From Bacilli bacterium (GTDB lineage: Bacteria > Bacillota_I > Bacilli_A > RFN20 > CAG-826): 64,000 bases of DNA. The position numbers and the translations under genes are program-made. The DNA lies in contig JAXFTN010000131.1 of NCBI GenBank assembly GCA_034176765.1, forward strand, positions 942 through 64,941. Direction: 5' to 3'. This document shows, piece by piece, positions 19,454-62,250 of the stretch (position 1 is its first letter; each line of letters opens with the position of its first letter). A model generated the notes under the pieces. That model was given only the letters and a program-made list of their open reading frames with translations. It was not told the origin of the DNA and did not search any database.

Positions 19454-19456
19454 TTT

Positions 19457-24689: not shown

Positions 24690-24875
24690 AGTAATTACTT
24701 ATTAAGATTGTAGAGAGTTAGTGGTTGGTGAAAACTAATATTTTAAAGTAATGAACTCGACTTTGTGTAAAGTATCCGTTAATCTGCGTTAAAGATATTA
24801 ATGAGTGCACGAATCGTGAATTAAGGTGGTACCGCGCTTAAAGGCGTCCTTATGTTTTAAGGGCTTTTTTTATTT
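24690..24875 (+). promoter_or_regulatory. T-box leader (Leu-specific) controlling leuS
   Basis: Stem-I elements (AGAGAG, GTGGTTGGTG) are present. A CUC specifier sits in GAACTCGA. Conserved T-box sequence AATTAAGGTGGTACCGCG is at 24819-24837. It is followed by terminator GCGCTTAAAGGCGTCC...GGGCTTTTTTT. Confidence 0.7.
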
Positions 24876-43517: not shown

Positions 43518-43527
43518 AATAATACCT

Positions 43528-46489: not shown

Positions 46490-46491
46490 AT

Positions 46492-46872
46492 CTAGTCCTC
46501 CTTGTGTTTGTGTATTGCATGATACACTTCATCTAAATTAAGAGTGTGATATTTTGAATATAACCTTACTGTTAGTGCTAAAGATATAGCTGTAACAGAA
46601 ACAGAAACAACAATACCTGTTAAGACTAGACCAGCAGGAATAGGATTTACATAAGATGAAGGATCGGTACTACCATTATTTAAGATTGGTGGGACACGAT
46701 CACCTTGAATATATCCCATAGATGCAAGAAATAAGTATGTTCCTGTATCCATAATATTTAACCCAATAATTTTCTTTAATAAGTTACGATGGAATAAGAG
46801 TAGAGCAAACCCAATGCCAAATAATAAGATGGCAACTACTTCTACTAAATGATCAAGTAAAGCTTGTAGCAT
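46492..46872 (-). CDS. Mrp antiporter subunit C-like (NuoK-like)
   Basis: LLFGIGFALLLFHRNLLKKIIGLNIMDTGTYLFL motif. ATGA overlap with the upstream gene. Confidence 0.7.
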   Translation of the reverse strand: MLQALLDHLVEVVAILLFGIGFALLLFHRNLLKKIIGLNIMDTGTYLFLASMGYIQGDRVPPILNNGSTDPSSYVNPIPAGLVLTGIVVSVSVTAISLALTVRLYSKYHTLNLDEVYHAIHKHKED

Positions 46873-46873
46873 A

Positions 46874-47767
46874 TTAGATTTCTCCTTTCTTAAATAATGA
46901 ATAGAATCCAAACATTGTGCATGTAACAACTAATCCGACACAAACATTTAAAATAAAGATTATGCCTCCACTTAAGATAGCACCAGGTTCGCCTAATGGA
47001 ATTACTGAATGCATACCATTAGCACCTGTAAAGAATGAATATGTTTTACATCCACAATATGTTAATAAAGATAGTGAAGTAATAACTTTGAAAGATTTTT
47101 GCTTGAAGAATCTTTCCGAATTATTAAAGCCAAATGCAATTGAATAAAGAATTAATCCTGCACCCATGATAGCTCCGCCGGAGAAACCTCCTCCAGGAGA
47201 AATGGATCCATTTAATACTACATATGCACCGAATAATAAAATAATAGGAACAAGGATAGAACAAGTAATTTGTAAAATTGGATCTTGTACAATTTTAAAT
47301 TTTTCTTTTAATGTTGCATTGTCTTTAAAACCTTGTAATAAAATCATTACACAAGTAACAGCAGTAAAAAGAACAAAAGATTCACCAAGAGTATCAAATG
47401 CACGATAATCTAAAATCATACCTGTTACAAAGTTGGTTGCGCCTGTATCACCAATACCATCCTTAATATATTTATCAATTATTTCATTTAGAGTAGGATT
47501 ATTTAATTCATCTCCAAAGACTGGTAAGAATGTAACACAATATAATAAGGAACAAATAAATAATAATGATGCAACAATTGCTATAAAATAATAAATTCCA
47601 GATTCAAATTTATGAGATTTCTTTTTAATTGCAGCAGTTGCTTGTTTGTTAGGTTTTTTAGCTTTTATAGTATCATCATAATTAACAACTAAATCTTCAT
47701 CGTTTTCAATATTTGAAAGCAAATCTTGACTTTCACCTAAAAAGTTTTTATTTTTCATGAGATTCAC
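46874..47767 (-). CDS. Mrp antiporter subunit B-domain protein with hydrophilic N-terminal extension
   Basis: GMILDYRAFDTLGESFVLFTAV is the MnhB signature. Confidence 0.65.
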   Translation of the reverse strand: MNLMKNKNFLGESQDLLSNIENDEDLVVNYDDTIKAKKPNKQATAAIKKKSHKFESGIYYFIAIVASLLFICSLLYCVTFLPVFGDELNNPTLNEIIDKYIKDGIGDTGATNFVTGMILDYRAFDTLGESFVLFTAVTCVMILLQGFKDNATLKEKFKIVQDPILQITCSILVPIILLFGAYVVLNGSISPGGGFSGGAIMGAGLILYSIAFGFNNSERFFKQKSFKVITSLSLLTYCGCKTYSFFTGANGMHSVIPLGEPGAILSGGIIFILNVCVGLVVTCTMFGFYSLFKKGEI

Positions 47768-48080
47768 CTTCTTTTATTTCTACTTGAGATGATTCTTCAA
47801 GTACACTATTTTCATTGTGTTTATCATCGACTTTATTTAAGTTAGAATCAATTTGTTTAATCTTCTTTAAAGTTAAGAAAAATAAAACACTTGTTACACC
47901 TGCACCAACAGCAGCTTCCGTAATTGCTAAATCAGGTGCTTGTAATAAAACCCAAATAACAGACATGACTACTGAATATGAACTAAAGATTATAATAGAT
48001 GTTAATAAATTCTTACTTAATCCAGCAGCAATAGCACAGACAACTAAAAAAACTAATAAAATAATTTCAAATATTTCCAT
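47748..48080 (-). CDS. Small MnhB-N-terminal-like (DUF4040-type) membrane protein
   Basis: Three helices. Occupies the MbhD/E position of Mbh-type clusters. Confidence 0.5.
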   Translation of the reverse strand: MEIFEIILLVFLVVCAIAAGLSKNLLTSIIIFSSYSVVMSVIWVLLQAPDLAITEAAVGAGVTSVLFFLTLKKIKQIDSNLNKVDDKHNENSVLEESSQVEIKEGESHEK

Positions 48081-48442
48081 TAGTTGTCACCTTCTTCCTT
48101 ATCTTCTACTTTTTCACTAGAATCAACTTGCGTTTGATTAACTTCTTTTTTTACTTGATCGTCAGTTAAGACTTCAAGTTTAGAAATAAAGTGACTTGCT
48201 ACAGGACTTGTTAGCCATAAAAAGATAACAATAAAGAATAATTTTATAGATGTTGCATTAAATCCATTAGCAATAGCAATTCCTAAGATAATACAAAATA
48301 AACCCATCGTATCTAATAAAGCTGCTGAGTGCATTTTGTTTAAAACGAATTTAAATTTATAAATTCCAATAACTCCTATAATAAATAGGAAAAGGCCTAA
48401 AAGAATAAAGAAAGCAGAAAAACCAAAAGTTACCCAAGTCAT
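48080..48442 (-). CDS. Mrp antiporter subunit G-like
   Basis: VLNKMHSAALLDTMG matches the MnhG RxHAA region. Length is 120 aa. Confidence 0.7.
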   Translation of the reverse strand: MTWVTFGFSAFFILLGLFLFIIGVIGIYKFKFVLNKMHSAALLDTMGLFCIILGIAIANGFNATSIKLFFIVIFLWLTSPVASHFISKLEVLTDDQVKKEVNQTQVDSSEKVEDKEEGDN

Positions 48443-48795
48443 TATTTTTCATCCTCCTTTTCTTCTTTTTTATTATCTTCTTCAATTGTAGGAATAATAT
48501 TAGTTGCTTTATGTTCTTCGATATAGCGATTAATAAAGACATTACTTAAAACGACAACTGATAAGAAAGATATTAAAACATAAATAATACATACATCACT
48601 TAAGTATGATTGCTTTAAAAATACTGAAAGAATAGCAATAATTGAAGTAACAAAAGTACCAGTCATATTGATAGTAACAATACGATCAGTTACACGAGGG
48701 CCTATAATAGTTTTAATAAGAATAAATAATAGACCAATACCTAAAAGGCATAATGTTCCAATAATTAGATATTCAAAAGCTAGTTCTGGTGTCAT
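48442..48795 (-). CDS. Mrp antiporter subunit F-like
   Basis: Three helices, 117 aa, positioned between the E and G subunits. Confidence 0.6.
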   Translation of the reverse strand: MTPELAFEYLIIGTLCLLGIGLLFILIKTIIGPRVTDRIVTINMTGTFVTSIIAILSVFLKQSYLSDVCIIYVLISFLSVVVLSNVFINRYIEEHKATNIIPTIEEDNKKEEKEDEK

Positions 48796-49289
48796 TATTT
48801 TTTGCCCTCCATTCTTCTTAATAGTTTAACTAATGTACTATTTTCAATTCCTTCAAAGTATTCTTTTCTTAAACAATGAACAATAAAAACACCACCATTT
48901 TTCTTTGTTTTATCACAAGAAATAGTGATAGTTCCTGGAGTAAGAGTAATAGAATTTGCTAGTAATGAAATTAGTAATTCGTTTTCTAAATCAATGTGTA
49001 TTTTGATAATCTGTGGTTCAGGAGTTTGTTTTCTTTTTAATATTAAAGAGACAACTTTTAAATTTGAAACTATAACATTAATAAATAAAACAATTCCATA
49101 AGCAATAAATAAATGAATGTGCTTTATAAAAAAAATATCTGTTTTAAAGCTCCATTTTGTAAATTTAATCATAAACCAATATATTAATGCACTTAATAAA
49201 AGGCCAATGATAACAATTTGTAGAAATTTTGTATCAAATGCAAAATGAGCATTCAATAATAACCATATTAAAAAAATGATTATAAACAT
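48795..49289 (-). CDS. Mrp antiporter subunit E-like
   Basis: LANSITLTPGTITI is the MnhE signature. RBS AAGGTGGAG precedes the ATG at 49289. First gene of the minus-strand operon. Confidence 0.7.
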   Translation of the reverse strand: MFIIIFLIWLLLNAHFAFDTKFLQIVIIGLLLSALIYWFMIKFTKWSFKTDIFFIKHIHLFIAYGIVLFINVIVSNLKVVSLILKRKQTPEPQIIKIHIDLENELLISLLANSITLTPGTITISCDKTKKNGGVFIVHCLRKEYFEGIENSTLVKLLRRMEGKK

Positions 49290-49469
49290 TTCTCCACCTT
49301 CTTTCACCTTTAAAACTATACCACTATAAGATTTTTAAATCAATTATTACATAGTAATAATATAGTATTTATCATAAATATTTTTTTATTAATGAAATAT
49401 GTTTTTCTTAACAATAAAGTACAAAAAAAATAAAATTTGTTTTTTTTTATCAAAACTAGTCGTTATTAG

Positions 49470-49503: not shown

Positions 49504-50811
49504 ATGAGTTTATTTAGTTCTAGCATAGGTAGACATTTAAACGGCCATAAAGAATTATCAAAACATGCCGAAATAATTGATCTTCGTGCGAAAGCTGGAC
49601 AAAAAGTTTATTTCCCTACTATTTGTTCAAATAATACTCCACTTAATGTTTTAGTTAAACCTGGAGATAAAGTTAAAGCTGGACAAAAAATAGCAGAAAG
49701 AACTGATTTTTATGTTCCAATTTATGCATCTGTATCTGGCACTGTTTTAGATGAAGAAGTCCTATTTAGTACAAATGTCAATAAACCTATCAAACACATC
49801 GTTATTGAAAGCGATGGTACTCACAAACAAAATAGGAAACTAAAAACTGTTACTTTAGAAAGTACTCAAGAAGAAATTTTCAAGGCTATTAAAGAAGCAG
49901 GTTTAGTTGGTCTAGGGGGTGCTGGGTTCCCTACTTATGTAAAATATAATAACCCACAAAATATCCACACATTACTTGTTAACGGAGTAGAATGTGAACC
50001 ATTCTTAACAACTGACTATGTTCAAATGTCAAGAGAAGTTGAATATTTAATGAGTGGTTGTGAATTATTAATGAAAGCAAGTGGAGCTGAAAAAGCTATC
50101 ATTGCTATTAAAGTTCATAAAGAAGATGTTAAAAATGCGGTTAATAGTAAATTAGCAGAACATCCTAATATTAAATTAGTTGAAGTTCCTGATAAATACC
50201 CAATGGGTTGGGAAAGAACTTTAATTAGACAAATATTTAAGAAGACTTATAACAAATTACCTTCTGAAGTTGGTATTGTTATAAATAACGGTCAAACAGT
50301 TATAGAACTTGCAAAAGTATTATTAGAAGGTCATCCTATGACTGAAAGAATGGTAACTGTTTCAGGTGACGCAATTAAAGAACCACATAATGTTTTAATT
50401 AATATTGGTACTCAAGCTAAAGAATTAATTGAAGCATGTGGTGGTATCACAGAAGAAGACTGTAATTTAATTCCTGGTGGTCCAATGTGTTCAAAGGCTG
50501 TTAATAATGATGTATTCCCATTAAATATGCAAATGGGTGCACTTACTATATTAAAAGTAAGAACATTTGTCGAAGAACCATGCTTAAGATGTGGTGCTTG
50601 TACAGGTCATTGTCCAGCAGGTCTTCAACCAGTTGAAATTAGAAGTGCTTTAAAAGCAAAAGATTACGATAGATTATTAAAACTTGATGTCTTATCTTGT
50701 GTCGAATGTGGTATGTGTTCATATACATGTCCTTCTCGTATTGAACTTACAGATGCTGTTAAGAACGCAAAACCAGTTGTCAAATTCAAGATGGCACAAG
50801 CAAAGAAATAA
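49504..50811 (+). CDS. rnfC: Rnf complex subunit C (NADH-binding, 2x[4Fe-4S])
   Basis: GLGGAGFPT NADH-binding loop. Ferredoxin motifs CLRCGACTGHCP and CVECGMCSYTCP are present. Confidence 0.9.
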   Translation: MSLFSSSIGRHLNGHKELSKHAEIIDLRAKAGQKVYFPTICSNNTPLNVLVKPGDKVKAGQKIAERTDFYVPIYASVSGTVLDEEVLFSTNVNKPIKHIVIESDGTHKQNRKLKTVTLESTQEEIFKAIKEAGLVGLGGAGFPTYVKYNNPQNIHTLLVNGVECEPFLTTDYVQMSREVEYLMSGCELLMKASGAEKAIIAIKVHKEDVKNAVNSKLAEHPNIKLVEVPDKYPMGWERTLIRQIFKKTYNKLPSEVGIVINNGQTVIELAKVLLEGHPMTERMVTVSGDAIKEPHNVLINIGTQAKELIEACGGITEEDCNLIPGGPMCSKAVNNDVFPLNMQMGALTILKVRTFVEEPCLRCGACTGHCPAGLQPVEIRSALKAKDYDRLLKLDVLSCVECGMCSYTCPSRIELTDAVKNAKPVVKFKMAQAKK

Positions 50812-50823
50812 GGAGGTAAGAAA

Positions 50824-52434
50824 ATGGCTTTTAAGACAAATTCAGCTCCTTATCAAAGAGCTAAAAAATCAACTCTACAAATTATGATAGAGTTAGCAAT
50901 TGCACTTGCAATTGTTTGGATTGCTGCGATTGTTACAACATTTATTAAATTAGGTTCTCCATATGGTGTTAAATCTATTTTGTTAATGGTTGTATCATTA
51001 GCTACTACAGCAGTTTGTGATGTTTTAACAACATTATTTAGAAATTTTAGAGTTCTAAAAGGTAAAGAACTTGGAAAAAAGATACTTTATGATTTAGTTC
51101 ATAATTATTCTTGGATTACTGCAATGATTCTTACTTTAATTTGCCCTGTCTGGACAAGTTATTATGCAATCATTTGTGGTTCAATCTTTGCTACTTTAGT
51201 TGTTAAAAATTTATTTGGTGGTTTTGGATCAAACATTTTCAACCCAGCTGCTTTTGGTAGAATTTTTATTCAACTATGTTTCTCATTAGCAGTTCCTGCA
51301 GGAATTACTAATGGTGTTGTTTCTGGAGCTACATTAACAGGTGTTGTTAATTCAAGTCAACAATGGCTTGGTGCTTTAGAAATCGATGGCTTTGGAATTA
51401 AAGAAATCTTATTAGGTACTTATTTTGGTACAATGGGTGAAACATTTACTATTCTTCTTTTAGTTTTAGGTGTTGTCCTTGCTATTAGAGGAGATATTAA
51501 CTGGAGAGCTCCTGTATTCTATGTAGGTACTGTCGCTGTTACTTCAATAATAATTGCATTAGTATTAGGATTTGAAAATCCTTTATTATATGTTGTATAT
51601 CATCTAGGTTTAGGTGGATTAATGTTTGGTGCTGTATTTATGATTACAGACCCTGTCACAACTCCTACTGCACCTGTTGGTAATTGCTTTGTTGGAGTAT
51701 TTGCAGCATTAATGACTGTTTTATTAAGAATTGCTACAAATGGTCCTGAAGGTGTTGTTTACTCAATTGCACTTGTTAACTTAATTACTCCAGCTATTGA
51801 TAGAATCTGTGTTGGTAAAACATCTGCTCATAAAGGAGTTAAATATGGTGTAACATTTGGTACTCTAGCAGCTTCTATCTTATTGTGTGTAGGTTGTTCA
51901 TGGGCTTTAAACGGTGGTCGTGAAGTCAATGAAATTAATGGAATTTCACGTAAAGAATATGATGAATTAAAATCATATGTAAATTTTGAATTCATGGATG
52001 AAAAAGGTTATGAATTCATGAAATATGAAAAAACAATTGGCTCATATAGTAGTCTAACTTCTGTTGGCAATTGTTCATCTGCATATAGTATCATTGATGA
52101 AAATAATAATGTAGTTGCTGCTGTTTACTGTGTTCAAGTTAGTGGTATTTCAATTGATAATGGATATAATGTTTCTGAGAAAACTGGTGTTGCTTACGTT
52201 GCTATTTCAACAACAACTGATCAAATTATTGATATGTCACTAGTTAAAGTTCCATATGTTGGAGCATATTTAGATAAAGTTAATGGTGGAGTTAATGATT
52301 TTGATTATGCAAATAATAATATTTTAGATAAAGAACCAAATCAGATTATTACAGGTGCTACTTATTCAGCAATAGGTATTAAAAATCTTGCACAAGCTGC
52401 CGTTGATGTTTATCAAGGCGAATATAAAGCATAG
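50824..52434 (+). CDS. rnfD: Rnf complex subunit D fused to a C-terminal FMN-binding (RnfG/NqrC-like) domain
   Basis: NqrB/RnfD core with FMITDPVTTPTAPVG. A ~170-aa extension contains the flavinylation-type motif IITGATYSAIG. Confidence 0.8.
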   Translation: MAFKTNSAPYQRAKKSTLQIMIELAIALAIVWIAAIVTTFIKLGSPYGVKSILLMVVSLATTAVCDVLTTLFRNFRVLKGKELGKKILYDLVHNYSWITAMILTLICPVWTSYYAIICGSIFATLVVKNLFGGFGSNIFNPAAFGRIFIQLCFSLAVPAGITNGVVSGATLTGVVNSSQQWLGALEIDGFGIKEILLGTYFGTMGETFTILLLVLGVVLAIRGDINWRAPVFYVGTVAVTSIIIALVLGFENPLLYVVYHLGLGGLMFGAVFMITDPVTTPTAPVGNCFVGVFAALMTVLLRIATNGPEGVVYSIALVNLITPAIDRICVGKTSAHKGVKYGVTFGTLAASILLCVGCSWALNGGREVNEINGISRKEYDELKSYVNFEFMDEKGYEFMKYEKTIGSYSSLTSVGNCSSAYSIIDENNNVVAAVYCVQVSGISIDNGYNVSEKTGVAYVAISTTTDQIIDMSLVKVPYVGAYLDKVNGGVNDFDYANNNILDKEPNQIITGATYSAIGIKNLAQAAVDVYQGEYKA

Positions 52435-52446
52435 GAGGTAAGTACG

Positions 52447-53007
52447 ATGAATAAATTAGTTAAATTGCCATTATTCCTAGGCGCAGTCGGATGTATTTGT
52501 GGTGGCGTTCTTGCTGCTGTAAATTTTGTTACAGAACCAGTTATTGCTGCTAATGAAGAAAAGAAAGCAAATGCTGCTTTCTATGAACATTTTTCTAATT
52601 TTAGTAAGAAAAATGTTGTAACAGTAAAAGATGAGCTTGCTTCTGCAGGTATTACTCAAAAATTTTATTGTTTTGATGAATCATTAACATTTATTGGTAC
52701 TGTATATGAATGTTCAGTCGTTGGATATGCTGGTAAAAGTACACCAATCAAATTTACAGTTTCATTTGCTAATGGAGCTCCTAATCACTATGTTGAATTA
52801 AGTAACGGCGAATCTGCTGAAGGCAAAAAATTTATGGATTGGCTTAAAGAAGATGTCAATGGAAATCGTTTATCAAATCTAGAAGAAGGTAAAACAGTTT
52901 CAGGTTCATCTATTTCATATAAAGCAGTTGATGGTGCAGTAAAGGCATGTTCAGCTGACTACCTTGCGGAACTTGAACATGTTCCAACTTTTATAGAAAA
53001 TGAATAG
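52447..53007 (+). CDS. rnfG: Rnf complex subunit G (FMN-binding)
   Basis: N-terminal membrane anchor. FMN_bind-like motif KTVSGSSISYKAVDGAV near the C-terminus. Confidence 0.75.
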   Translation: MNKLVKLPLFLGAVGCICGGVLAAVNFVTEPVIAANEEKKANAAFYEHFSNFSKKNVVTVKDELASAGITQKFYCFDESLTFIGTVYECSVVGYAGKSTPIKFTVSFANGAPNHYVELSNGESAEGKKFMDWLKEDVNGNRLSNLEEGKTVSGSSISYKAVDGAVKACSADYLAELEHVPTFIENE

Positions 53008-53021
53008 GAGGGTAAATAGTT

Positions 53022-53681
53022 ATGAAAAAATTACAAACATTTTTAAATGGTTTATTATTTGAAAATCCTACTCTTGTTATTTTCTTAGGTATGTGCCCTG
53101 CTTTAGGAACAACAAATACTGTTGAAAATGCTACATATATGTCATTATGTGTATTATTTGTTTTACTTCTTTCAAATATTATTATTTCATTGATTAGAAA
53201 AATCGTTCCAAATGAAGTAAGAATTCCTGTTTACATTATTATCATTGCAACTCTTGTTACAATTGTTGATATGTTATTCCATGCATATTTACCAGATAAA
53301 GTTTATTCTTCATTAGGTTCATTTATATCATTGATTGTTGTTAACTGTATTATTTTAGGAAGAGCAGAATCATTTGCTTCTAAAAATAAAATCGGTGATT
53401 CAATTATCGATGCATTAGGTTACAGTGCTGGTTTTGCTGGAGCTATTATTATTGTAGCTTTCTTCAGAGAATTATTAGGCACAGGATGTTTATCATGGGG
53501 TAGCAGTTCTGTTGATCTATTCTCTGATTATAAAATTTCTTTATTTGCATCTAATGCTGGGGCATTTATTGCATTGGGTATCGTAGTAGGTATTTATTCA
53601 GCAATTATGAGTGCTATAAAAAATCATAAGGCAAAAAAAGCTGCATTAGCTAAAGAAGCTAATGTTGAAGCTACAAAGTAA
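53022..53681 (+). CDS. rnfE: Rnf complex subunit E
   Basis: ENPTLVIFLGMCPALGTTNTVENA matches the RnfE/NqrD signature. Confidence 0.9.
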   Translation: MKKLQTFLNGLLFENPTLVIFLGMCPALGTTNTVENATYMSLCVLFVLLLSNIIISLIRKIVPNEVRIPVYIIIIATLVTIVDMLFHAYLPDKVYSSLGSFISLIVVNCIILGRAESFASKNKIGDSIIDALGYSAGFAGAIIIVAFFRELLGTGCLSWGSSSVDLFSDYKISLFASNAGAFIALGIVVGIYSAIMSAIKNHKAKKAALAKEANVEATK

Positions 53682-53696
53682 GGAGGAATAAAAGAA

Positions 53697-54275
53697 ATGG
53701 ATTTATTTGCTATCGCATTTGCTGCTTTACTTGGCAGTAATATTATTCTTTCAAGATTTTTAGGTATTTGTCCTTTCTTAGGAGTTTCTAAAAAAACTTC
53801 TAGTGCTGTTGGCATGGGTTTAGCATTAATTGCTGTTGTTACTTTATCAGCTTTATTATGTTTTGCACTTGATAAACTACTTGTTTTATTAGGAATGGCA
53901 TCTTATCTAGAATTAGTTGTTTTCATTCTTGTAATTGCTTCATTCGTTCAATTATTAGAATTTTTCTTAAAGAGATTTGTTCCAAGTTTATATAAATCAC
54001 TAGGTGTTTATCTTCCTTTAATTACAACAAACTGTGTTGTTTTACAAGTATGTTTAGATCTTGTTTCAAGAGAATATAACTTATTACAAACTTTAGTTTA
54101 CGCAGTTAGTGTATCAGCAGGTTATATGCTAATCATTGTTCTTTTCTCTTTAATTAGAACTCGTTTAGATAATCAACCTAATATGCCTAAAGCATTTAAA
54201 GGAAATGCAATTGCCTTAATTACAGCTGGATTAATGGCTATGGCTTTCATTGCATTTAGTGGTTTTAGCTTCTAA
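53697..54275 (+). CDS. rnfA: Rnf complex subunit A
   Basis: ILSRFLGICPFLGVSKK matches the RnfA/NqrE signature. Confidence 0.9.
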   Translation: MDLFAIAFAALLGSNIILSRFLGICPFLGVSKKTSSAVGMGLALIAVVTLSALLCFALDKLLVLLGMASYLELVVFILVIASFVQLLEFFLKRFVPSLYKSLGVYLPLITTNCVVLQVCLDLVSREYNLLQTLVYAVSVSAGYMLIIVLFSLIRTRLDNQPNMPKAFKGNAIALITAGLMAMAFIAFSGFSF

Positions 54276-54493
54276 TGATATTCACTCAAGAAACTGGTAA
54301 TATATGGGTTCAAATAGGTATTTTACTTGTATGTATTGCATTATTTGTAGGTACTTATTTATTGAATAGACATACAAAAAAGCCAGATGGATGTGAAAAT
54401 GTTAGTGAGCATTGTACAGGTTGTACAATCTCTTCCTGTTCTCATCATCCAAATAATTCTAAAGAAGAAAAAGGAGAAGAAAAAAATGATTAA
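54275..54493 (+). CDS. Small single-pass membrane protein with Cys-rich tail (CxnCxxCxxxxCxHH)
   Basis: Translationally coupled between rnfA (ATG overlaps its stop) and rnfB (8-nt overlap). One helix, then CENVSEHCTGCTISSCSHH. Confidence 0.4.
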   Translation: MIFTQETGNIWVQIGILLVCIALFVGTYLLNRHTKKPDGCENVSEHCTGCTISSCSHHPNNSKEEKGEEKND

Positions 54494-54800
54494 AATTTTA
54501 TTAGCTATGGCTGTTTCTTTAGGAATAGCAGCTATATTAGGTTTTGGACTTGCACTTGCTGATAAATTCCTTAAAGTTGAAGAAGATCCACGTATTGAAA
54601 AAGTTACTTCAATGCTACCTGGTGCAAACTGTGGTGGTTGTGGCTTCCCTGGATGTTCTGGTTATGCATGTGCATTAGTTGAAAAGAAAGTTGATTCTTT
54701 AGCAGCTTGTAAAGTATCAAAACCAGAAGCAAAAGAACAAATTAAAGCTTATTTAAAAGAGACACCAGGACCTGATGGAACTACTCTTGATTTAAAATAA
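54486..54800 (+). CDS. rnfB: Truncated RnfB: N-terminal membrane anchor and Cys-cluster module only, no polyferredoxin domains
   Basis: RBS AAAGGAGAAG is present. LPGANCGGCGFPGCSGYACAL matches the RnfB N-terminal Fe-S module. The ORF stops after 104 aa with no CxxCxxCxxxCP ferredoxin motifs. An immediate terminator follows. Confidence 0.65.
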   Translation: MIKILLAMAVSLGIAAILGFGLALADKFLKVEEDPRIEKVTSMLPGANCGGCGFPGCSGYACALVEKKVDSLAACKVSKPEAKEQIKAYLKETPGPDGTTLDLK

Positions 54801-54803
54801 ATT

Positions 54804-54828
54804 AAATGGCCGAAAGGCCATTTTTTTA
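54804..54828 (+). terminator. Rho-independent terminator after rnfB
   Basis: Hairpin AAATGGCCGAAAGGCCATTT followed by a T-run. Confidence 0.75.
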
Positions 54829-54938
54829 TTGAGTTTATGGTTAAAAACAATAATAATATTTCGATAAAAATATATTGATTTAAATATATGTATTTGTTAA
54901 AATATATGTGTCTTAAAAATGGAGGTAGACAGAAAATT

Positions 54939-55901
54939 ATGAAAAAATCAAAATTATTATTAATTCCTGCTGTTCTTGCTCTTGGATCATTAGCATCATG
55001 TGGCGGAACAAAAGAAGTTTCTCTTGGATTAGGCTATGTAGCTTCATTTGCTGATTCACATGGAAAAATGCAATTAGAAGTTAGTGTAGCTTCAGTTGGT
55101 TTTGATAAAGATGGTAAAGTTCTTGATGCAAGATTTGACACAATTCAAGTCACACATGCTGCTGCTAAAAACGCTGATGGATCAATTACTTTCAGCACAC
55201 CATCTGCAACAAACGATAATGGCGTTAAATCTAAACTAGAATTAGGTAAAGATTACAACATGAAACCTGTTAGTGCTTTAGGTCTTGAAGTCGATACTCA
55301 AATTGAAACTTTTGCTGATTTCTGTGTTGGTAAAACAGTAGAAGAAATTAAAGCAGCTGAATCTGTTGAAGGTGTTTCAATTGTTGTTTCAAGTTATGTT
55401 AGCGCATTAGAAAAAGCATATGCTTCAAAAAGAGAAGCTGTTTCTTACAAAGGCGAATTAAAAGCTGGCGTTGGTATGGCTGGTACACTTAATGCAAAGA
55501 AAAATGAAACTTCAATTACAGTTAATGCTTCATTAGTAGCTGATTCTAAAGTTGTTGCATCTTATACAGACTGTGTTGTTCACCAATTCAGCGGTGCTGT
55601 TGAAGGTGACAAAGTGGTTGTTTCATCTAAAGCAGACCAAAAATATGTTGTAAATGGAAAAATCACATCTAAATATGATTTACACGAAGCTTATGGTATG
55701 GGCCAAACTGGTGAAAAAGTTATCTTAGAATGGGACGTTCAAGCAGAAAACTTTGATGCTGCAGTTATTGGTAAAACAGCAGATGAAATTAAAGCATTAA
55801 AAGATATCGAAGGTTGTACAATGGTAATTACAGATATGATTGGTGCTACTGTTGAAGCTGTTACATACTCAGGTATGGAACACGTTGGTCCACAAGCTTA
55901 A
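54939..55901 (+). CDS. Surface lipoprotein with two internal repeats; candidate flavinylated (FMN-binding-like) ApbE substrate
   Basis: RBS GGAGG is present. Lipobox LASCGG. The two halves are related (VEEIKAAESVEGVSIVVSS versus ADEIKALKDIEGCTMVITDMIGATVEAV). The second half carries a D-x-x-x-G-A-T motif. Confidence 0.45.
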   Translation: MKKSKLLLIPAVLALGSLASCGGTKEVSLGLGYVASFADSHGKMQLEVSVASVGFDKDGKVLDARFDTIQVTHAAAKNADGSITFSTPSATNDNGVKSKLELGKDYNMKPVSALGLEVDTQIETFADFCVGKTVEEIKAAESVEGVSIVVSSYVSALEKAYASKREAVSYKGELKAGVGMAGTLNAKKNETSITVNASLVADSKVVASYTDCVVHQFSGAVEGDKVVVSSKADQKYVVNGKITSKYDLHEAYGMGQTGEKVILEWDVQAENFDAAVIGKTADEIKALKDIEGCTMVITDMIGATVEAVTYSGMEHVGPQA

Positions 55902-55919
55902 TAATTTAAATTAGCTTTT

Positions 55920-55949
55920 AAAGTTGCTACATATGTAGCAACTTTTTTT
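55920..55949 (+). terminator. Rho-independent terminator
   Basis: Hairpin AAGTTGCTACATATGTAGCAACTT followed by a T6 run. Confidence 0.7.
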
Positions 55950-55995
55950 GTTTATTTTAAATAATGAATAGGGTAATATATAGATGGGTGAAATT

Positions 55996-57174
55996 ATGAA
56001 AAAGGCGTCAGTTTATTTATTACTAATTTGTTTATTATCATCATGCAGTTTGAAATATAATTATGAAGTTAATCCATATGATGTTATGGGTGTTATTGAT
56101 GATAATGGTGAATATATACCAGCTTTGAATTCATTTGTAAAATTGCAGATGTATAATGAAAATGAATTAAAAGAAGTAAGATCTTCTTTTTCGAGTACAA
56201 TTCAAAAAGTACATATTATTTCAGATAGTTATCATTCTTATTTTGGAAATAATAATGTAAAAACAATTAATGAAAACTATGGTAAAGAAGCTATAAATGT
56301 TGACCCTTTACTTATTGATTTAGTTAATAAAGGTATTGAATTAACAAAATTAACAAAAGGCATTTTTAATATTACTATGGGACAGACTATTTCTTTATGG
56401 AGTGATGCTTTTAATAATATCGATAATTCGTTAACAGCTGATGATCCTAATCATGAAGAAATAGAAAAAAGTTTAACTTCTATTATAAATTATGAAGAGA
56501 TTGATAATTATATTAAAATAGACCAAGAAAATTCAACTATTAAAATAGAAACTAAAGAAGATGCCTTAATGCCTGTTTTATTAAATTTTGGAGGCATTTC
56601 AAAAGGATTTGCTTTAGATCAAGTAAATGATTTGTTTTTAAATAATCAACCAGGAATAATTTCGGCTGGTTCTTCTTCAATATCATTAAAAGGTACGTTT
56701 CCTTTAAGTAATCGGAAATATTATTTAATTAATATTCGAGAACCTTCTTTTTATAAGTCTTCTCAACAAGAAGTGTTTTTACAAATAGCTCTAGAAAAAT
56801 ACAATAACATTTCAAATTCGGGTGATTATGAAAAGTTTTTCTTTACCAAAGATACAAATACTTTAAGATCTCATATTATAAATGCTTCGACTGGATTTAG
56901 TGATAATTATCATCGTTCTGCGATTGTGTTTAGTGAAACATATTCATATGTATTAGACGTTTTATCAACAACACTTATGAACCTTGAAACTATAGACGAA
57001 ATTGAAGAAATGGTAAAAAGATTTGAAGATTTTTATAAGACTTCAATTGCATATTGTATTATTGATGATTTTGAAAATGGATTTAAATTATCTGTTAATG
57101 AAAAGTTTAATGAATGTATTGTTGAAAATAAAATATCCTCGATAATCAAGGATATTCAAGTAATTAAGAATTAA
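55996..57174 (+). CDS. apbE: FAD:protein FMN transferase (ApbE family), lipoprotein, copy 1
   Basis: Lipobox LLSSCS. ApbE motifs are present: FGGISKGFALDQV, ISAGSSS, SHIINASTG and LDVLSTT. Confidence 0.7.
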   Translation: MKKASVYLLLICLLSSCSLKYNYEVNPYDVMGVIDDNGEYIPALNSFVKLQMYNENELKEVRSSFSSTIQKVHIISDSYHSYFGNNNVKTINENYGKEAINVDPLLIDLVNKGIELTKLTKGIFNITMGQTISLWSDAFNNIDNSLTADDPNHEEIEKSLTSIINYEEIDNYIKIDQENSTIKIETKEDALMPVLLNFGGISKGFALDQVNDLFLNNQPGIISAGSSSISLKGTFPLSNRKYYLINIREPSFYKSSQQEVFLQIALEKYNNISNSGDYEKFFFTKDTNTLRSHIINASTGFSDNYHRSAIVFSETYSYVLDVLSTTLMNLETIDEIEEMVKRFEDFYKTSIAYCIIDDFENGFKLSVNEKFNECIVENKISSIIKDIQVIKN

Positions 57175-57703
57175 ATAAGTGTTCAATGTGATGGTCAACT
57201 TTTAATAAAACAAGAGAAGTTAATAAAGCAGTAAGTAGACCTGTTATAATTCCTGAAATCATTAAAATAGGATAATACATAACTAGACCAAAAGTATTAT
57301 ATATAATTGATACAGCAATCATTTGACCAACACCATGGAAAACAGCACTTACACATGAAAGTCCATAAATTGAAAATTTCTTTAGGTAATATAATATAAC
57401 AACGATTAATGTTGATAAAAACCACCCACTAAGACTTAAAATGAAAGCTACAGAAAATAGACCTGTTCTTAAAAGACCAACAATTAAAACTCTTAAGAAG
57501 CCAATAGAAATATATTCTTTTGGTGAATAATAATATAATATAACTAATCCAATTGTATTTGCTAATCCTAGTTTTACGCCAGGAATAGCTATTGGAAGAG
57601 GTATCATTGATTCAACTAGATTTAAGATAATTCCTAATGCTAGGAATAAACTTAATCTAGTTATTTTTTTGATTGTTTTACTAGATTTAGAAGTGTTTTC
57701 CAT
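57164..57703 (-). CDS. Gx-transporter-family membrane protein (heptaprenyl-diphosphate-synthase-component-I-like)
   Basis: IPLPIAIPGVKLGLANTIGLV matches the family's PGxKLGLAN signature. About 5-6 helices. Its start overlaps the upstream NusG-II gene's stop. Confidence 0.55.
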   Translation of the reverse strand: MENTSKSSKTIKKITRLSLFLALGIILNLVESMIPLPIAIPGVKLGLANTIGLVILYYYSPKEYISIGFLRVLIVGLLRTGLFSVAFILSLSGWFLSTLIVVILYYLKKFSIYGLSCVSAVFHGVGQMIAVSIIYNTFGLVMYYPILMISGIITGLLTALLTSLVLLKVDHHIEHLFNS

Positions 57704-58148
57704 AATTTATTACACCTCCATATCCAAGTGTTTCATTACCTTCGCTATCATCTGTTGAATTGATTACTACACGTACATCGTTTGGAATACATACAATTGG
57801 TAAATTAGCGATATTAACCCATCCTTGTTTTTCACATGTTAAGTTAGGACAAGTAACATCGTGAACACGTATTCCTTTATCTTTATTAATATCAATATAA
57901 AAATCTCCAAGTAAATCAGGATATTTTTCTTTAGTTAAAACAATTGTATAAGTTTCATCAAGGTTATCAATATCAGTTCGATATTCTTTTAATTCTTCAC
58001 TTTTATAATAAATACAAACATATCTATTGCCAGAAAAGGCGCTATTATAAATAAAAATACCCACCATTAAAGAAATTGATGCTAGTGCACTAACAGCAAT
58101 TATGATAATATCAATAATTTTGAACTTTAATGAAAAATTTCTATTCAT
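57687..58148 (-). CDS. NusG-domain-II-containing small membrane-anchored protein
   Basis: N-terminal helix plus a ~110-aa beta-rich domain. Conserved partner of Gx-transporter/ApbE genes. ATG overlaps the upstream apbE stop. Confidence 0.45.
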   Translation of the reverse strand: MNRNFSLKFKIIDIIIIAVSALASISLMVGIFIYNSAFSGNRYVCIYYKSEELKEYRTDIDNLDETYTIVLTKEKYPDLLGDFYIDINKDKGIRVHDVTCPNLTCEKQGWVNIANLPIVCIPNDVRVVINSTDDSEGNETLGYGGVINYGKHF

Positions 58149-59454
58149 AATACACCTTACAATTTGAAGCTTTAATTTCTACATCTTTTTTTAAAGAACT
58201 ATCAATATAAATGTTTAGCTTATTATCTTTGTCTGTATCCATAATAATTAGGGAAAGATCTTTATCAGGATATTTAGCTAATAAATTATTTCTGTATGTG
58301 AAACATTGTTCTAGAGGCAAATTAACAAACATTGTTGAAAGAGCATCAAGTTGAGCATTAGAAAATGTCTTAGAAATAATAGTTACACTTGAATGTTCTT
58401 GACTACAATCACCAGTATAAGGATTAATAATGTGATGACGATATAATTTATTATTATCATCAGTATTAATATAATATGAATTATGATTATAATTACCAGA
58501 TGTTGAAATACCGTAATCATAATTTACACTTAAAGAAAAAGCTATATCTCTAATAATAGAGTTTCCTGTGCGAGGATCAGCAAAATTAAATAATTGATAT
58601 CCTTTTTCAAAAAAAGTAGGCGCAGTTAAAGAAGCTAATGAACTAGAACCAGCATTAATAACTCCATCAGTATAATTTAATGATAAGAATTTTTCTTTAA
58701 TGTAATCAACTGCTAACCCTTTTGCAATACCACCTGTAGTTATAACGGGACGATATTTAGAAGTGACTTTATTTCTTTCTAGTATGGAACCATTATATTC
58801 TTTATTATCAATAGCATTAAATGTAATTTCTTTTTTTTCATCATTAAAAGTAAACAATTCTTTAACTTCATCCATAGTTGGTGTAGCATTTGCGTATTTT
58901 AACATTTCAAGATTTTGTTCTTGACTATAGTAAGGGTCATAAAGATGAACATCATTACCTTCATCTAAGACATTGTAAAAAATGTCATCCCAAAAAGAAT
59001 TTAATTTACCAACAAAGAAATTAAAATAACCATTAGTTTCCAGTGTCATATCATATCCAACTTTTAGTAAAGAATATACTTTATCATCACATTTAATTGG
59101 AACATTACTACCATATGAATCGTTAATTACTTTAATCGAGGTAATAATGTTGCCATCTTCATCTTTATAGTTATAGTGTCTATCAAATAATTTATGTAAA
59201 GAATTGATTTGATCTAAAAAGATACTTTTAACTTTTTCATCAAAATTATCTTCATAAGTTTTCTTTTCGTTTTTAAAGTATTTAAAAGTCATTACCGTAT
59301 TAAATGGGACTACAGGTATATTAGTAGATGTTAAAACTGAAGCTGTACTATTAGATACAACTAACCATTCTCCTTTATTAATGACTTTATCTGCGCATGA
59401 AATTAGCGAAGAGGAGCAAAGTAAAATTGATAAATATTTGAATTTGTTTTTCAT
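58141..59454 (-). CDS. apbE: FAD:protein FMN transferase (ApbE family), lipoprotein, copy 2
   Basis: Lipobox LISCAD. ApbE motifs are present: TGGIAKGLAVDYI, INAGSSS, HHIINPYTGD and LDALSTMF. Confidence 0.72.
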   Translation of the reverse strand: MKNKFKYLSILLCSSSLISCADKVINKGEWLVVSNSTASVLTSTNIPVVPFNTVMTFKYFKNEKKTYEDNFDEKVKSIFLDQINSLHKLFDRHYNYKDEDGNIITSIKVINDSYGSNVPIKCDDKVYSLLKVGYDMTLETNGYFNFFVGKLNSFWDDIFYNVLDEGNDVHLYDPYYSQEQNLEMLKYANATPTMDEVKELFTFNDEKKEITFNAIDNKEYNGSILERNKVTSKYRPVITTGGIAKGLAVDYIKEKFLSLNYTDGVINAGSSSLASLTAPTFFEKGYQLFNFADPRTGNSIIRDIAFSLSVNYDYGISTSGNYNHNSYYINTDDNNKLYRHHIINPYTGDCSQEHSSVTIISKTFSNAQLDALSTMFVNLPLEQCFTYRNNLLAKYPDKDLSLIIMDTDKDNKLNIYIDSSLKKDVEIKASNCKVYYE

Positions 59455-59553: not shown

Positions 59554-60549
59554 TTACTTTTCCGATCTCTCAATAACAGAATTTCTTTCTACTATTTGTC
59601 CTCTTAAAGTTACTCTTTGTGGAGATTTATTAATGAAAAGTGAAGATAATAACTCAAATGCTGTTTTTCCCATTTTTGCAAAATCTTGTCTAACTGTAGT
59701 TAAAGAAGGTTTAATGTGTTCTGCAATATCTAAATCATCAAAACCAGTAATTGAAATATCTTCAGGAACTCTAATACCTTTGCTTGTAAAACCTTCAATT
59801 AATCCAATAGCCATTAAATCTGAACTACAAACAACAGCAGTTATTCCTTTATTTAAAAAGAAATCACTTAAATTTTCAGCAGATGTTTTTGTATAGTCAC
59901 CATTAATTACAAAGTCTGGATTATATTCAATATTATTATTTGATAGACCAATTATATAGCCTGCTAATCTTTCATTAGAAACAAATGAATGTTTTTCACC
60001 ATTTAAGAAGCCAATGTTACGATGGCCTTTTGAAACCAAATAAGAAACGATTTTACTAATAGAATTTAAGTTATCAATACCAACAGTTGATACATTATCT
60101 GCTGTATAGTTGTTATCATATAAAACAACAGGATGGTTGATATTATCTAGTTGATCGAATAATTTAGAATGATAATTAATTCCAACAATAAAAGTACCAT
60201 CAAACTTATTGTCTTCTAAATAAGATGAAAGATTAAATGATTCATCTTTATTTGATAAAGCTTCTATAACTACTTCACAGTTATTTGCAGTAGCTTCTGT
60301 TGAAAATGATGTTGCTAAAGGATAAAAAATATTTCCTTGAGCATTAAGATTCATATTATCGAATAAAATACAAATACGACGACGATGTTTACTAACTTTA
60401 CGTTCTTCTTTTGTTTGATATCCACATTCTTTTACATAATTTAATACTAATTGCCTTGTTGTTTCAGATACATCAAAAGCACCAGTGATAGCTTTTGATA
60501 CTGTACTAATTGATAGATTCAAGGCTTCCGCAATGTCTTTAATTCTCAT
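59554..60549 (-). CDS. LacI-family transcriptional regulator
   Basis: N-terminal HTH MRIKDIAEALNLSISTVSKAI plus a periplasmic-binding-protein-like sugar-binding core. RBS GAGGGAG precedes the ATG at 60549. Confidence 0.85.
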   Translation of the reverse strand: MRIKDIAEALNLSISTVSKAITGAFDVSETTRQLVLNYVKECGYQTKEERKVSKHRRRICILFDNMNLNAQGNIFYPLATSFSTEATANNCEVVIEALSNKDESFNLSSYLEDNKFDGTFIVGINYHSKLFDQLDNINHPVVLYDNNYTADNVSTVGIDNLNSISKIVSYLVSKGHRNIGFLNGEKHSFVSNERLAGYIIGLSNNNIEYNPDFVINGDYTKTSAENLSDFFLNKGITAVVCSSDLMAIGLIEGFTSKGIRVPEDISITGFDDLDIAEHIKPSLTTVRQDFAKMGKTAFELLSSLFINKSPQRVTLRGQIVERNSVIERSEK

Positions 60550-60713
60550 AATAATACTCCCTCTTTCCAATTATATTTTAATATTTTCGAATATTTTTTC
60601 AAGTATTTTCGATAAATATACTAAAAAAGTTCGAATTTTTGCGATAATTGATATATAAATTGACTTTATTGGCAAATATTTATACTATATATATGAAAAT
60701 AAAAATAAATTTT

Positions 60714-60741: not shown

Positions 60742-62250
60742 ATGTTTAATAAAAATCGTGAAGCAGGTATTCTTTTACACATCACTTCTTTACCATCTAA
60801 ATATGGAGTAGGTACAGTTGGTAAGAAGGCTTATTCATTTATTAGATGGATGAAAAAAGCAGGACTTAAAATCTGGCAAATTTTACCATTAGGTCCTACA
60901 AGTTACGGAGACTCTCCATATCAATCTGTATCAGCTATGGCAGTCAATTATTATTTAATTGATTTAGATATGTTAAAAGATGAGGGCTTACTTGAAGAAA
61001 AAGATTATAAGAATGTTGATTTTGGTAATGATCCAAAAAGAGTAAATTATGAAAAATTATTCAATAATCGTATTACAGTTTTAAAGAAAGCATTTTCTCG
61101 CTTTAACAAAAAGAATAAAGAATTTGTTGAGTTTTGTAAAAATGAAGATTATTTAGACTTTGGTGTCTTTATGACTATTAAAGCTATGAATAATTATAAT
61201 GCTTGGACAGAATGGCCTGAAGAATATAGAAACTATTCTCAAGAAGTTGTAGAAAAAGTTTTAAATAAATATGGTAATGAAGTTAAATTTTGGCAATTTA
61301 CTCAATTTAAATTCTTACAACAATGGAAAGCATTAAAATCTTTTGCTAATAGTAATGGAATTGAAATTATGGGTGATATTCCTCTATATATTGGTGGAGA
61401 TAGTGTCGAATTATGGAAATATCCTGAATTATTTATTACAGATGAAAATCATCGTCCAACTTTAGTTGCTGGCTGTCCACCTGATTGTTTTACAGAATTT
61501 GGACAATTATGGGGAAATCCTGTTTATGACTGGGATTATAGCAAAAAAACAAATTATGCTTGGTGGAATAAACGTATTTATAATACCTTCAATTTAGTTG
61601 ATATTTTACGTATTGATCACTTTAGAGGCCTAGATAGATGGTATGCTATTGAAAATGGTAGACCAGATGCAAAAATTGGTGAATGGAAAGATGGCCCTAA
61701 ATTTGATTTATTCAAAGATAAAACAGATTTATGTATCGTCGCTGAAGATTTAGGATTTATCGATGAAGGTGTAAGAATTCTAATGAGACAAACTGGTTAT
61801 CCTGGTATGAAAATTCTAGAATTTGCATTTGATGGTCATGACGATAATGAACATAAACCTACAAATACTACACCTAACTATGTTGTTTATACAGGTACTC
61901 ATGACAATATGCCTTTAAGACAATATATTGATGATTTAAATGGTCATGAAAGATGGGTCTTTGTTGAAGATTTAAAAAATCAATGTAATAGAATCAATGT
62001 TCCTTATACTGAAGAAGAATTATCTACTAGTGTTGGATTAACTAATAAAGCTGTCGAGTTAGCATTTGCTTCTGTTGCTAATACTGCTATTATTCCAATG
62101 CAAGATTTCTTAGCTTTAGGTGGAGAATCTCGTATGAATTTACCAAGTACTGTATCTACTGCTAACTGGTCATATAGATTAAATCGTGGTGATACTTCTA
62201 TTGAATTAGCTAAGCGAATTAAGAGTTTAGTTAAAACTTATAATAGATAA
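60742..62250 (+). CDS. malQ: 4-alpha-glucanotransferase (amylomaltase)
   Basis: N-terminus REAGILLHITSLPSKYGVGT and LGPTSYGDSPYQS motifs are present. Length is 502 aa. Confidence 0.9.
   Translation: MFNKNREAGILLHITSLPSKYGVGTVGKKAYSFIRWMKKAGLKIWQILPLGPTSYGDSPYQSVSAMAVNYYLIDLDMLKDEGLLEEKDYKNVDFGNDPKRVNYEKLFNNRITVLKKAFSRFNKKNKEFVEFCKNEDYLDFGVFMTIKAMNNYNAWTEWPEEYRNYSQEVVEKVLNKYGNEVKFWQFTQFKFLQQWKALKSFANSNGIEIMGDIPLYIGGDSVELWKYPELFITDENHRPTLVAGCPPDCFTEFGQLWGNPVYDWDYSKKTNYAWWNKRIYNTFNLVDILRIDHFRGLDRWYAIENGRPDAKIGEWKDGPKFDLFKDKTDLCIVAEDLGFIDEGVRILMRQTGYPGMKILEFAFDGHDDNEHKPTNTTPNYVVYTGTHDNMPLRQYIDDLNGHERWVFVEDLKNQCNRINVPYTEEELSTSVGLTNKAVELAFASVANTAIIPMQDFLALGGESRMNLPSTVSTANWSYRLNRGDTSIELAKRIKSLVKTYNR

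Follow-up and report, generated by a model that had tools for sequence, protein, structure and literature searches.

A minimal RnfB, an RnfD-fused flavin domain and a neighbouring candidate flavin lipoprotein in the rnf locus of a Bacilli bacterium

Rnf is a central redox-driven ion pump in many anaerobes, and structural models place the docking of ferredoxin on the C-terminal polyferredoxin domain of its RnfB subunit. Flavin-based extracellular electron transfer (FLEET) of the Listeria type employs Ndh2, DmkA/B, EetA, EetB, FmnB and PplA, the last of which is a surface lipoprotein with two ApbE-flavinylated FMN_bind domains. Here we analyzed an rnf locus that shares components with both systems. 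It occupies positions 49504-59454 of a 64-kb stretch of DNA from a Bacilli bacterium (contig JAXFTN010000131.1), the whole of which is hereafter called the window (G+C content approximately 28%). Genes of the window were identified by open reading frame (ORF) calling combined with Pfam and NCBIfam profile searches, and its nearest public relative was an uncultured 'Bacilli bacterium' metagenome-assembled genome (MAG; locus L001), whose RnfD was 85% identical. We lean, with modest confidence, towards the reading that the locus would encode a complete and functional ion-translocating Rnf of a lineage-specific minimal-RnfB type, furnished with an extra external port, and not a one-way exporter of NADH electrons.

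According to a recent review, RnfB is built of three parts, namely a transmembrane (TM) helix, a small flexible one-cluster domain feeding RnfA/E, and a ferredoxin-accepting C-terminal domain with two to seven clusters, and the Cys pairs of RnfA and RnfE are the ligands of an intramembrane [2Fe-2S] cluster (PMC12174285). For multi-flavinylated Rnf, the presence of more than one extracytosolic ApbE-type flavin mononucleotide (FMN) domain has been proposed to provide a second electron path to extracytosolic acceptors (Meheust 2021, PMC8238504). In addition, outward electron flow has been proposed for Nqr/Rnf-like two-subunit systems, which like the present locus contain an RnfD/NqrB-type membrane domain and an extracytosolic FMN domain (Meheust 2021; Huang 2024, PMC11334425). 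Those systems are devoid of RnfA, RnfE, RnfB, RnfC and the RnfD flavinylation site and carry a cytosolic NqrF-like NAD-binding domain on their RnfD homologue (PMC11334425), whereas all of the subunits and the SGAT site of RnfD were found here.

The rnf genes C, D, G, E, A and B form an unbroken run on the + strand (49504-54800) in which neighbouring reading frames overlap or are separated by short gaps, and the order rnfC-rnfD-rnfG-rnfE-rnfA-72-aa peptide-rnfB constitutes a single operon closed by an intrinsic-terminator-like hairpin with a T-run (54804-54823, +). Behind this terminator lie a lipoprotein gene and apbE1 on the + strand, and then the PF07456, NusG_II and apbE2 genes on the − strand. 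A preliminary description, made from the nucleotide sequence, had listed intact rnfC-D-G-E-A followed by a Cys-rich 72-aa peptide, a 104-aa RnfB devoid of ferredoxin-type motifs and a terminator, an RnfD with an FMN-binding domain additional to RnfG, and, downstream, a two-repeat lipoprotein, two lipobox-bearing ApbEs, and NusG_II and Gx-transporter genes; this inventory was borne out in nearly every detail by the ORFs and profile searches. In comparison with the canonical Clostridial Rnf (C. tetanomorphum 7ZC6, A. woodii 9ERI), the order rnfCDGEAB was shared, RnfC, the RnfD core, RnfE and RnfA aligned end to end with the solved chains and shared their cofactor ligands, and the N-terminal TM helix and first [4Fe-4S] domain of RnfB were likewise in common. 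In contrast, the C-terminal ferredoxin-acceptor domain of two to seven clusters was missing here, and a 4-Cys TM peptide, together with a TM helix and an RnfG-like FMN domain on RnfD, was additionally present.

The gene rnfB (54486-54800, +) encodes 104 aa comprising a TM helix and a PF04060 [4Fe-4S] domain (CGGCGFPGC ... C76; E = 4e-9), the start being assigned to the ATG at 54486, which overlaps the stop of the 72-aa ORF; an upstream in-frame ATG would give 137 aa. PF04060 was the only Pfam match, and otherwise the N-terminal 80-90 residues of RnfB models were matched, while no CxxCxxCxxxC motif occurred in the window RnfB and the full-length RnfB NCBIfam models all scored below their cut-offs. 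The protein aligned to residues 1-78 of the solved RnfBs 9eri_B, 8ahx_B and 7zc6_B (A. woodii, A. vinelandii and C. tetanomorphum; E = 4e-13 to 2e-10), with C49, C52, C57 and C76 in place. Judged by these alignments, the window RnfB is without exactly the third of the three parts, the C-terminal polyferredoxin domain, and has retained the predicted TM helix and shuttle domain.

A search of 5.8 billion proteins returned 182 RnfB homologues, the best 120 of which were nearly all 93-113 aa long with identities from 96% down to approximately 45%, and at least 100 homologous clusters fell within this length range. With RnfD, 80 genomic loci were retrieved, and an rnfB was detectable in 66 loci (window included). 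A short RnfB lacking the CxxCxxCxxxC motif was found in 58 of the 66; 56 of these proteins measured 93-112 aa, and CxxCxxxxC plus the fourth Cys was kept in all 58. The full-length RnfBs of this sample came from 8 spirochaete loci (268-275 aa, three CxxCxxCxxxC motifs each), and the short ones from Erysipelotrichaceae, Erysipelothrix, Bulleidia, Anaeroplasma, Acholeplasmatales, Acholeplasmataceae, Izemoplasmatales and unclassified Bacilli MAGs. On this comparative evidence, the short RnfB is not specific to this locus but characterizes the entire Erysipelotrichales / Acholeplasmatales / Anaeroplasmataceae / Izemoplasmatales-like clade. It was equally present in relatives having a single plain RnfG and no lipoprotein, and therefore gave no evidence that the cytoplasmic branch is being given up; since it coexisted with 1, 2, 3, 4 or 8-10 outer FMN domains, the shortening of RnfB is independent of the outer elaboration. 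The ±10 kb around each of the 58 short-RnfB loci (the window among them) contained no other ferredoxin-motif ORF, so that a detached C-terminal domain of RnfB is not encoded nearby. Literature searches covering Tenericutes, Mollicutes and Erysipelotrichaceae turned up no account of the minimal RnfB as an architecture shared by a whole clade, and genome papers name such operons just rnfCDGEAB (PMC11122141).

The 72-aa single-pass peptide (54275-54493, +), whose start overlaps the rnfA stop and whose stop overlaps the rnfB start, consists of one TM helix, basic residues and a C-x7-C-x2-C-x4-C tail (54392-54439). Although it had no match in Pfam, NCBIfam or a PDB sequence search, iterative searches showed that 53 of the 58 loci with a short RnfB, counting the window, carry a homologous ORF between rnfA and rnfB, as against none of the 8 loci whose RnfB is full-length. 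Members of this family, translationally coupled to their neighbours, ranged from 54 to 87 aa, and 51 of the 53 contained exactly four Cys residues. The peptide was absent from the loci of Izemoplasmatales/Mycoplasmatota type, though RnfB is short there as well, and it is therefore not obligatory for a short RnfB. From the positive-inside rule, we infer that its Cys tail faces the cytoplasm, as does the RnfB cluster. The peptide is thus presented as a candidate extra Rnf subunit, whose tail might hold a metal or Fe-S site assisting electron input. No published description of such a 4-Cys partner peptide was found.

RnfC (435 aa; 49504-50811, +) supplies the NADH/FMN module (TIGR01945, E = 2e-103; PF01512, E = 6e-38; in addition PF13375, SLBB and Fer4) and carries two [4Fe-4S] motifs of the form CxxCxxCxxxCP, CLRCGACTGHCP at 50581-50616 and CVECGMCSYTCP at 50698-50733 (both +); rnfC was the sole ORF of the window with a CxxCxxCxxxC motif. 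RnfD comprises 536 aa as a whole (50824-52434, +; PF03116 over residues 5-331, E = 3e-61), and its core, residues 1-342 (50824-51849, +), contains the flavinylation motif VVSGATLTG at 51316-51342 and aligned to residues 8-302 (of 310) of the solved RnfD 7zc6_D. RnfE (219 aa; 53022-53681, +; PF02508, E = 2e-56) has its Cys residues in GMCPALG and VVNCIILG, and RnfA (192 aa; 53697-54275, +; PF02508, E = 4e-51; TIGR01943, E = 2e-62) in GICPFLG and TTNCVVL; in full-length alignments to 7zc6_E and 7zc6_A, both Cys of each protein were conserved. Hence the NADH/FMN/FeS module of RnfC, the SGAT site of RnfD, the divergent FMN domain of RnfG, the Cys pairs of RnfA/E and the [4Fe-4S] shuttle domain of RnfB were all found, so that, as far as can be read from the encoded proteins, the usual U-shaped path has all its predicted cofactor sites except the RnfB C-terminal antenna. 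Because the RnfB TM helix and shuttle domain have been kept, and the four RnfB Cys residues and the RnfA/E Cys pairs are conserved, the cytoplasmic branch looks functional.

The C-terminal part of RnfD departs from the solved structures. The solved RnfD chains stop at an alignment position near residue 330 of the window RnfD, and do not include the extra TM helix formed by residues 343-362 (VTFGTLAASILLCVGCSWAL; 51850-51909, +), which is conserved in orthologues and is predicted to carry what follows to the outer face. There, a domain of approximately 175 residues (51910-52434, +) contains ITGATYS (52348-52368) as its predicted ApbE flavinylation site. By itself this domain matched Pfam FMN_bind weakly (E = 0.03), and 10 of 13 orthologues matched the same profile (best 1.8e-7); alignment of the family with RnfG by hhalign gave a probability of 97% (E = 1e-10), with the TGAT in register with the RnfG acceptor motif. 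Based on these profile comparisons, the C-terminus of RnfD amounts to a second RnfG joined onto this subunit. Its motif, QIITGAT, misses Asp alone of the consensus D-x-x-[S/T]-G-A-[S/T]; in a model substrate of ApbE, changing Asp to Ala had a minor effect on flavinylation, and Gly-to-Ala or Ala-to-Val reduced it, the latter by half (PMC12052999). The subfamily is rare, an exhaustive search having returned 11 representative clusters among 1.84 billion and a word-indexed search one fragment, and we found no published description of an RnfD-RnfG fusion.

RnfG itself (186 aa; 52447-53007, +) combines an N-terminal TM anchor with a divergent FMN_bind domain, its profile matches being weak (TIGR01947, E = 6e-7; FMN_bind, E = 0.007; neither reaching its curated cut-off). 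In relatives with a single RnfG, to which it aligned, the motif reads SGAT; in the window motif VSGSSIS (52897-52917), Ser stands for Ala and Ser is the predicted acceptor. The locus thus distributes two RnfG-like domains over two polypeptides, the RnfD C-terminus and RnfG, whereas other relatives multiply flavin domains within RnfG, with 2-4 domains in RnfGs of 305-621 aa and 8-10 in those of 1125-1555 aa. The giant RnfGs, with 8-10 FMN_bind-like domains, were observed in the Anaeroplasmataceae/Acholeplasmatales loci L030, L031, L036, L048 and L049 (e.g., L049:11174-15445), in operons that still pair them with a short RnfB and the 4-Cys peptide. Like multi-flavinylated Rnf (Meheust 2021, PMC8238504), the present Rnf cluster holds more than one FMN domain predicted to be extracytosolic, but the second is fused to RnfD instead of being reiterated within RnfG, and the locus has gained a lipoprotein of two domains together with a dedicated ApbE. 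Where that paper mentions RnfB, a short form is not discussed.

This lipoprotein (54939-55901, +; lipobox LASC), encoded by a gene with its own terminator (55920-55945, +), consists of two homologous FMN_bind-like domains of approximately 150 aa, the halves matching each other with E = 2e-9. It had no Pfam or NCBIfam match, and hhalign of its family against RnfG was not significant (3% probability). In the AlphaFold2 (AF2) model, the repeated unit is made of three long strands and helices, and the modelled fold resembles FMN_bind, with RnfG and NqrC chains further down the match list. The family profile, moreover, matched 2kzx by sequence (E = 0.0012), placing G-V-S over the G-A-T of the 2kzx SGAT. 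Candidate flavinylation sites are S147 (EGVS, 55368-55385, +) and T294 (EGCT, 55809-55826, +), and across 71 homologues the acceptor position was Thr or Ser in both repeats without exception, within a motif [AS][GS][VC][TS][IM].

Genomic context is the strongest evidence on the lipoprotein. Among 8 distant homologues (26-38% identity to the window lipoprotein), apbE lay beside the lipoprotein gene in all 8 loci. Two Clostridia loci (L082:1173-8124 and L083:790-8298) showed the order Pyr_redox_2 (Ndh2-like)-polyprenyl synthase-UbiA-NusG_II-PF07456-lipoprotein-ApbE, which matches the Listeria FLEET locus in composition, the place of PplA being taken by the lipoprotein. In a Clostridial MAG (L087:9001-17629), rnfCDGEAB-eetA-eetB converged with a lipoprotein-ApbE pair; RnfB was full-length there (261 aa; RnfG, 421 aa), and the association of lipoprotein and Rnf therefore exists independently of RnfB shortening. 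The gene directly followed the short rnfB in four loci of Izemoplasmatales/Mycoplasmatota type, and within the window clade it accompanied the RnfD fusion in 6 of 6 loci with sufficient contig reach (L001-L004, L007 and L013). The preliminary description had named the lipoprotein as a candidate for flavinylation, and this was upheld in part: the FMN_bind-like fold, the invariant Thr/Ser, the adjacent ApbE and the occupation of the PplA slot speak for it, whereas neither EGVS nor EGCT is a canonical motif. Taken from sequence and context, it is a credible PplA-like client of ApbE, and we found no published description of a linkage between this Pfam-less PplA-like family and Rnf; in a comparative study, cad/pplA-apbE pairs were reported only in genomes without rnf (PMC7074142). 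The family resembles FMN-bind2 (NTW96865.1, Erysipelotrichaceae bacterium), which also has paired domains of approximately 150-160 aa without InterPro/Pfam assignment and belongs to the same broad taxon, and which was found by BLAST and described as extended β-sheets packing into a pseudo-symmetric unit (Huang 2024, PMC11334425). It probably corresponds to FMN-bind2, judging from the published description and the AF2 model.

The gene apbE1 (396 aa; 55984-57174, +; PF02424, E = 2e-35), paired with the lipoprotein gene, encodes a protein with the lipobox LSSC and the motifs GGISKG and SHIINASTG, and apbE2 (437 aa; 58141-59454, −; PF02424, E = 4e-25) one with the lipobox LISC and the motifs GGIAKG and HHIINPYTG. 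Between them lie an EetB homologue (57164-57703, −; PF07456, 'Gx transporter', E = 1e-36), a predicted S component of the energy-coupling factor (ECF) type that would export flavin adenine dinucleotide (FAD) for ApbE, and an EetA homologue (57687-58148, −; NusG_II, PF07009, E = 4e-16), its membrane-anchored partner. PF07456 defines eetB, the FAD-binding ECF S component exporting FAD to ApbE/FmnB in Listeria, and PF07009 carries the label EetA in Data Set S1 of the same work; eetB adjoins eetA in 3,328 genomes and apbE in 2,169, and its commonest companions are Rnf and EET systems, with 572 Clostridia genomes having Rnf (Rivera-Lugo 2023, PMC9973259). By its domain content, the apbE2-eetA-eetB cassette is this known FAD-export and flavinylation kit, and its linkage to Rnf is already published (Rivera-Lugo 2023, PMC9973259). 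It followed rnfB directly and on the same strand in the close relatives L002-L007, L009 and L013; in the window and L001 it was inverted, with the lipoprotein-apbE1 pair between it and rnfB. With Listeria-type FLEET the locus thus shares EetA (PF07009), EetB (PF07456), ApbE/FmnB and a two-domain surface lipoprotein beside ApbE. In contrast to that system, Rnf was the sole membrane redox module nearby, no Ndh2 or DmkA/DmkB having been found in the 39-62 kb portion of the window or among 30 other window ORFs scanned, and the lipoprotein, unlike PplA, is not a Pfam FMN_bind protein and carries [AES]G[VC][TS] instead of [ST]GA[ST].

In the mechanism that we propose, the complex would consist of RnfC, RnfD with its fused RnfG-like domain, RnfG, RnfE, RnfA, the 4-Cys peptide and the 104-aa RnfB, and NAD(H) would still be coupled to a low-potential cytoplasmic carrier, either ferredoxin or flavodoxin, docking directly on the RnfB shuttle domain and possibly assisted by the 4-Cys peptide. 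The U-shaped electron path would pump Na+ or H+, and the neighbouring Mrp antiporter would fit such a role: a Mrp-type Na+/H+ antiporter operon of approximately 9 kb (40019-49307, −; PF01899, PF04039 and PF00361), divergent from rnfC, includes several PF00361 subunits (of the four large ORFs at 40019-46489, two were tested and both gave the Pfam match), and the adjacency of Mrp and rnf was kept in the closest relatives L001-L004, L006 and L010. The apbE2-eetA-eetB cassette would mature RnfD and RnfG, and ApbE1 would flavinylate the two-flavin lipoprotein. RnfG and the RnfD-fused flavin would then form a node at the outer face in electron exchange with the lipoprotein, which in turn would connect to extracytosolic partners, so that this side port would be a quinone-independent analogue of the PplA branch in Listeria-type EET. 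An outward flavin branch is plausible, and has already been proposed for multi-flavinylated Rnf (Meheust 2021, PMC8238504). Relatives with the same Rnf type have been reported to possess pyruvate:ferredoxin oxidoreductase (PFOR) and FeFe hydrogenases (PMC11122141; PMC8397711), and a ferredoxin pool therefore exists there. A bolder version, in which the minimal RnfB and the 4-Cys peptide would be a new electron-input module replacing the polyferredoxin antenna clade-wide, with another cytoplasmic partner or another way of docking it, and the Rnf of this sub-lineage would be hard-wired through the RnfD flavin and the lipoprotein to quinone-independent EET, giving three ports (NADH, low-potential carrier and outside), appears doubtful to us as a whole.

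The preliminary description had taken the loss of the polyferredoxin domain as a sign that the complex may export NADH electrons one way, without ferredoxin:NAD coupling, along NADH → RnfC → RnfD → RnfG/extra FMN → lipoprotein, as an Rnf-based form of FLEET. The domain described as the ferredoxin acceptor is indeed absent, no split ferredoxin-domain partner turned up within the ±10 kb searched around the 58 short-RnfB loci, the locus has both a PplA-like lipoprotein and an additional FMN domain on the outer side, and Nqr/Rnf-like two-subunit systems have been proposed to be unidirectional (PMC8238504; PMC11334425). Such export, however, would have no need of RnfA, RnfE, RnfB or the 4-Cys peptide, all of which have been kept with their cluster ligands conserved across deep divergence, whereas the published unidirectional Nqr/Rnf-like systems have shed subunits of the RnfA/E/B type. 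Moreover, a short RnfB is just as present in relatives whose RnfG is plain and which lack the lipoprotein, and the lipoprotein cassette also stands beside the full-length-RnfB Rnf of L087. Since RnfB shortening and the outer elaborations are thus uncoupled in both directions, and the subunits superfluous to export are under evident constraint, we consider one-way export improbable. What was put forward as an Rnf-based counterpart of the Ndh2/PplA route accordingly stands as a plausible outward flavin branch, an idea already published, and is not supported as a conversion of Rnf into a one-way exporter. As for a frameshifted or truncated rnfB pseudogene or an assembly artefact, nothing was found in its favour, the sole hint being the ambiguity of the start (137-aa versus 104-aa ORF). 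A clean TAA followed by the terminator, the lack of any ferredoxin-motif remnant downstream, the conserved length in at least 100 clusters and the agreement of 58 loci from many MAGs and taxa exclude it for practical purposes; its probability is negligible, and the short rnfB is genuine.

An ordinary housekeeping Rnf would be a further explanation, the fused domain being a redundant duplicate of RnfG and the lipoprotein-ApbE1 pair an independent module that sits beside rnf because flavinylation genes cluster. Accordance with this comes from the loci L081, L084 and L086, where the lipoprotein-ApbE pair occurs without Rnf or FLEET genes, from the commonplace occurrence of eetB, eetA and apbE beside rnf, and from the lipoprotein and apbE1 genes themselves, which are separate transcription units after terminators and whose position varies among close relatives. 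On the other hand, the lipoprotein adjoins rnf in three lineages (the window clade, an Izemoplasmatales-like group and the Clostridial MAG), it occurs with the RnfD fusion in every window-clade locus long enough to judge, and the clade has repeatedly expanded outer flavin domains, up to 8-10 per RnfG, which argues for use of the outer node. We regard this explanation as a minority possibility. For the favoured reading of a complete Rnf with an added external port, several observations are unfavourable. The segment holding the separately transcribed lipoprotein and apbE1 genes is rearranged relative to close relatives, and adjacency alone is therefore weak evidence of electron exchange with Rnf. 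The lipoprotein motifs SVEGVS and DIEGCT deviate from D-x-x-[S/T]-G-A-[S/T] at positions -3 and -1, a deviation for which the dedicated ApbE1 may compensate. Finally, no terminal reductase is encoded near the locus, and no ferredoxin, flavodoxin or ferredoxin-dependent enzyme was seen within the window.

Several other features of the window deserve mention. In one ORF (3840-4817, −), a 2-thiouracil desulfurase domain (PF04463) is joined to the S component of an ECF-type riboflavin transporter (PF07155), a fusion that may bear on how the flavinylation system is supplied with flavin. An Rfam scan of the window revealed no FMN riboswitch near the locus, the sole match being a T-box leader (RF00230, 107 bits; 24667-24854, +) upstream of leuS (24891-27284); no tRNA genes were found in the window. 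A SleB-type cell-wall hydrolase (PF07486; 1955-2404, +) suggests a walled cell, even though G+C content and Rnf type are Mollicutes-like. Wadjet-like defence genes (11630-17073, +) encode JetA (PF18982, E = 3e-94), a DUF4194 protein (JetB-like) and a 1126-aa SMC/SbcC-like ATPase (JetC-like); behind them comes glgC and not a JetD-like gene. Glycogen genes (17178-20893, +; 60742-62250, +), comprising two GlgC/GlgD-like nucleotidyl transferases, a GlgA-like starch synthase and the 4-alpha-glucanotransferase MalQ, are consistent with a saccharolytic fermenter, and a LacI-type regulator gene is located at 59554-60570 (−).

The association of Rnf with ApbE and EetA/B (PMC9973259) and the concept of a multi-flavin Rnf with an outward branch (PMC8238504) were already known. 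To these the present comparison adds an entire clade in which RnfB would amount to a TM helix and a single shuttle cluster, usually together with a conserved 4-Cys micro-protein. This clade covers common gut Erysipelotrichales-like and Mollicutes-like bacteria as well as cultured Anaeroplasma, Erysipelothrix, Bulleidia and Acholeplasmataceae, and its minimal RnfB would offer a natural minimal system for asking what electron input into Rnf requires. Furthermore, the occurrence of one lipoprotein family alternately with Ndh2 and demethylmenaquinone genes or with Rnf supports the notion of PplA-like flavoproteins as portable outlets for different redox modules, and such outlets would bear on the disposal of electrons by quinone-poor gut fermenters.

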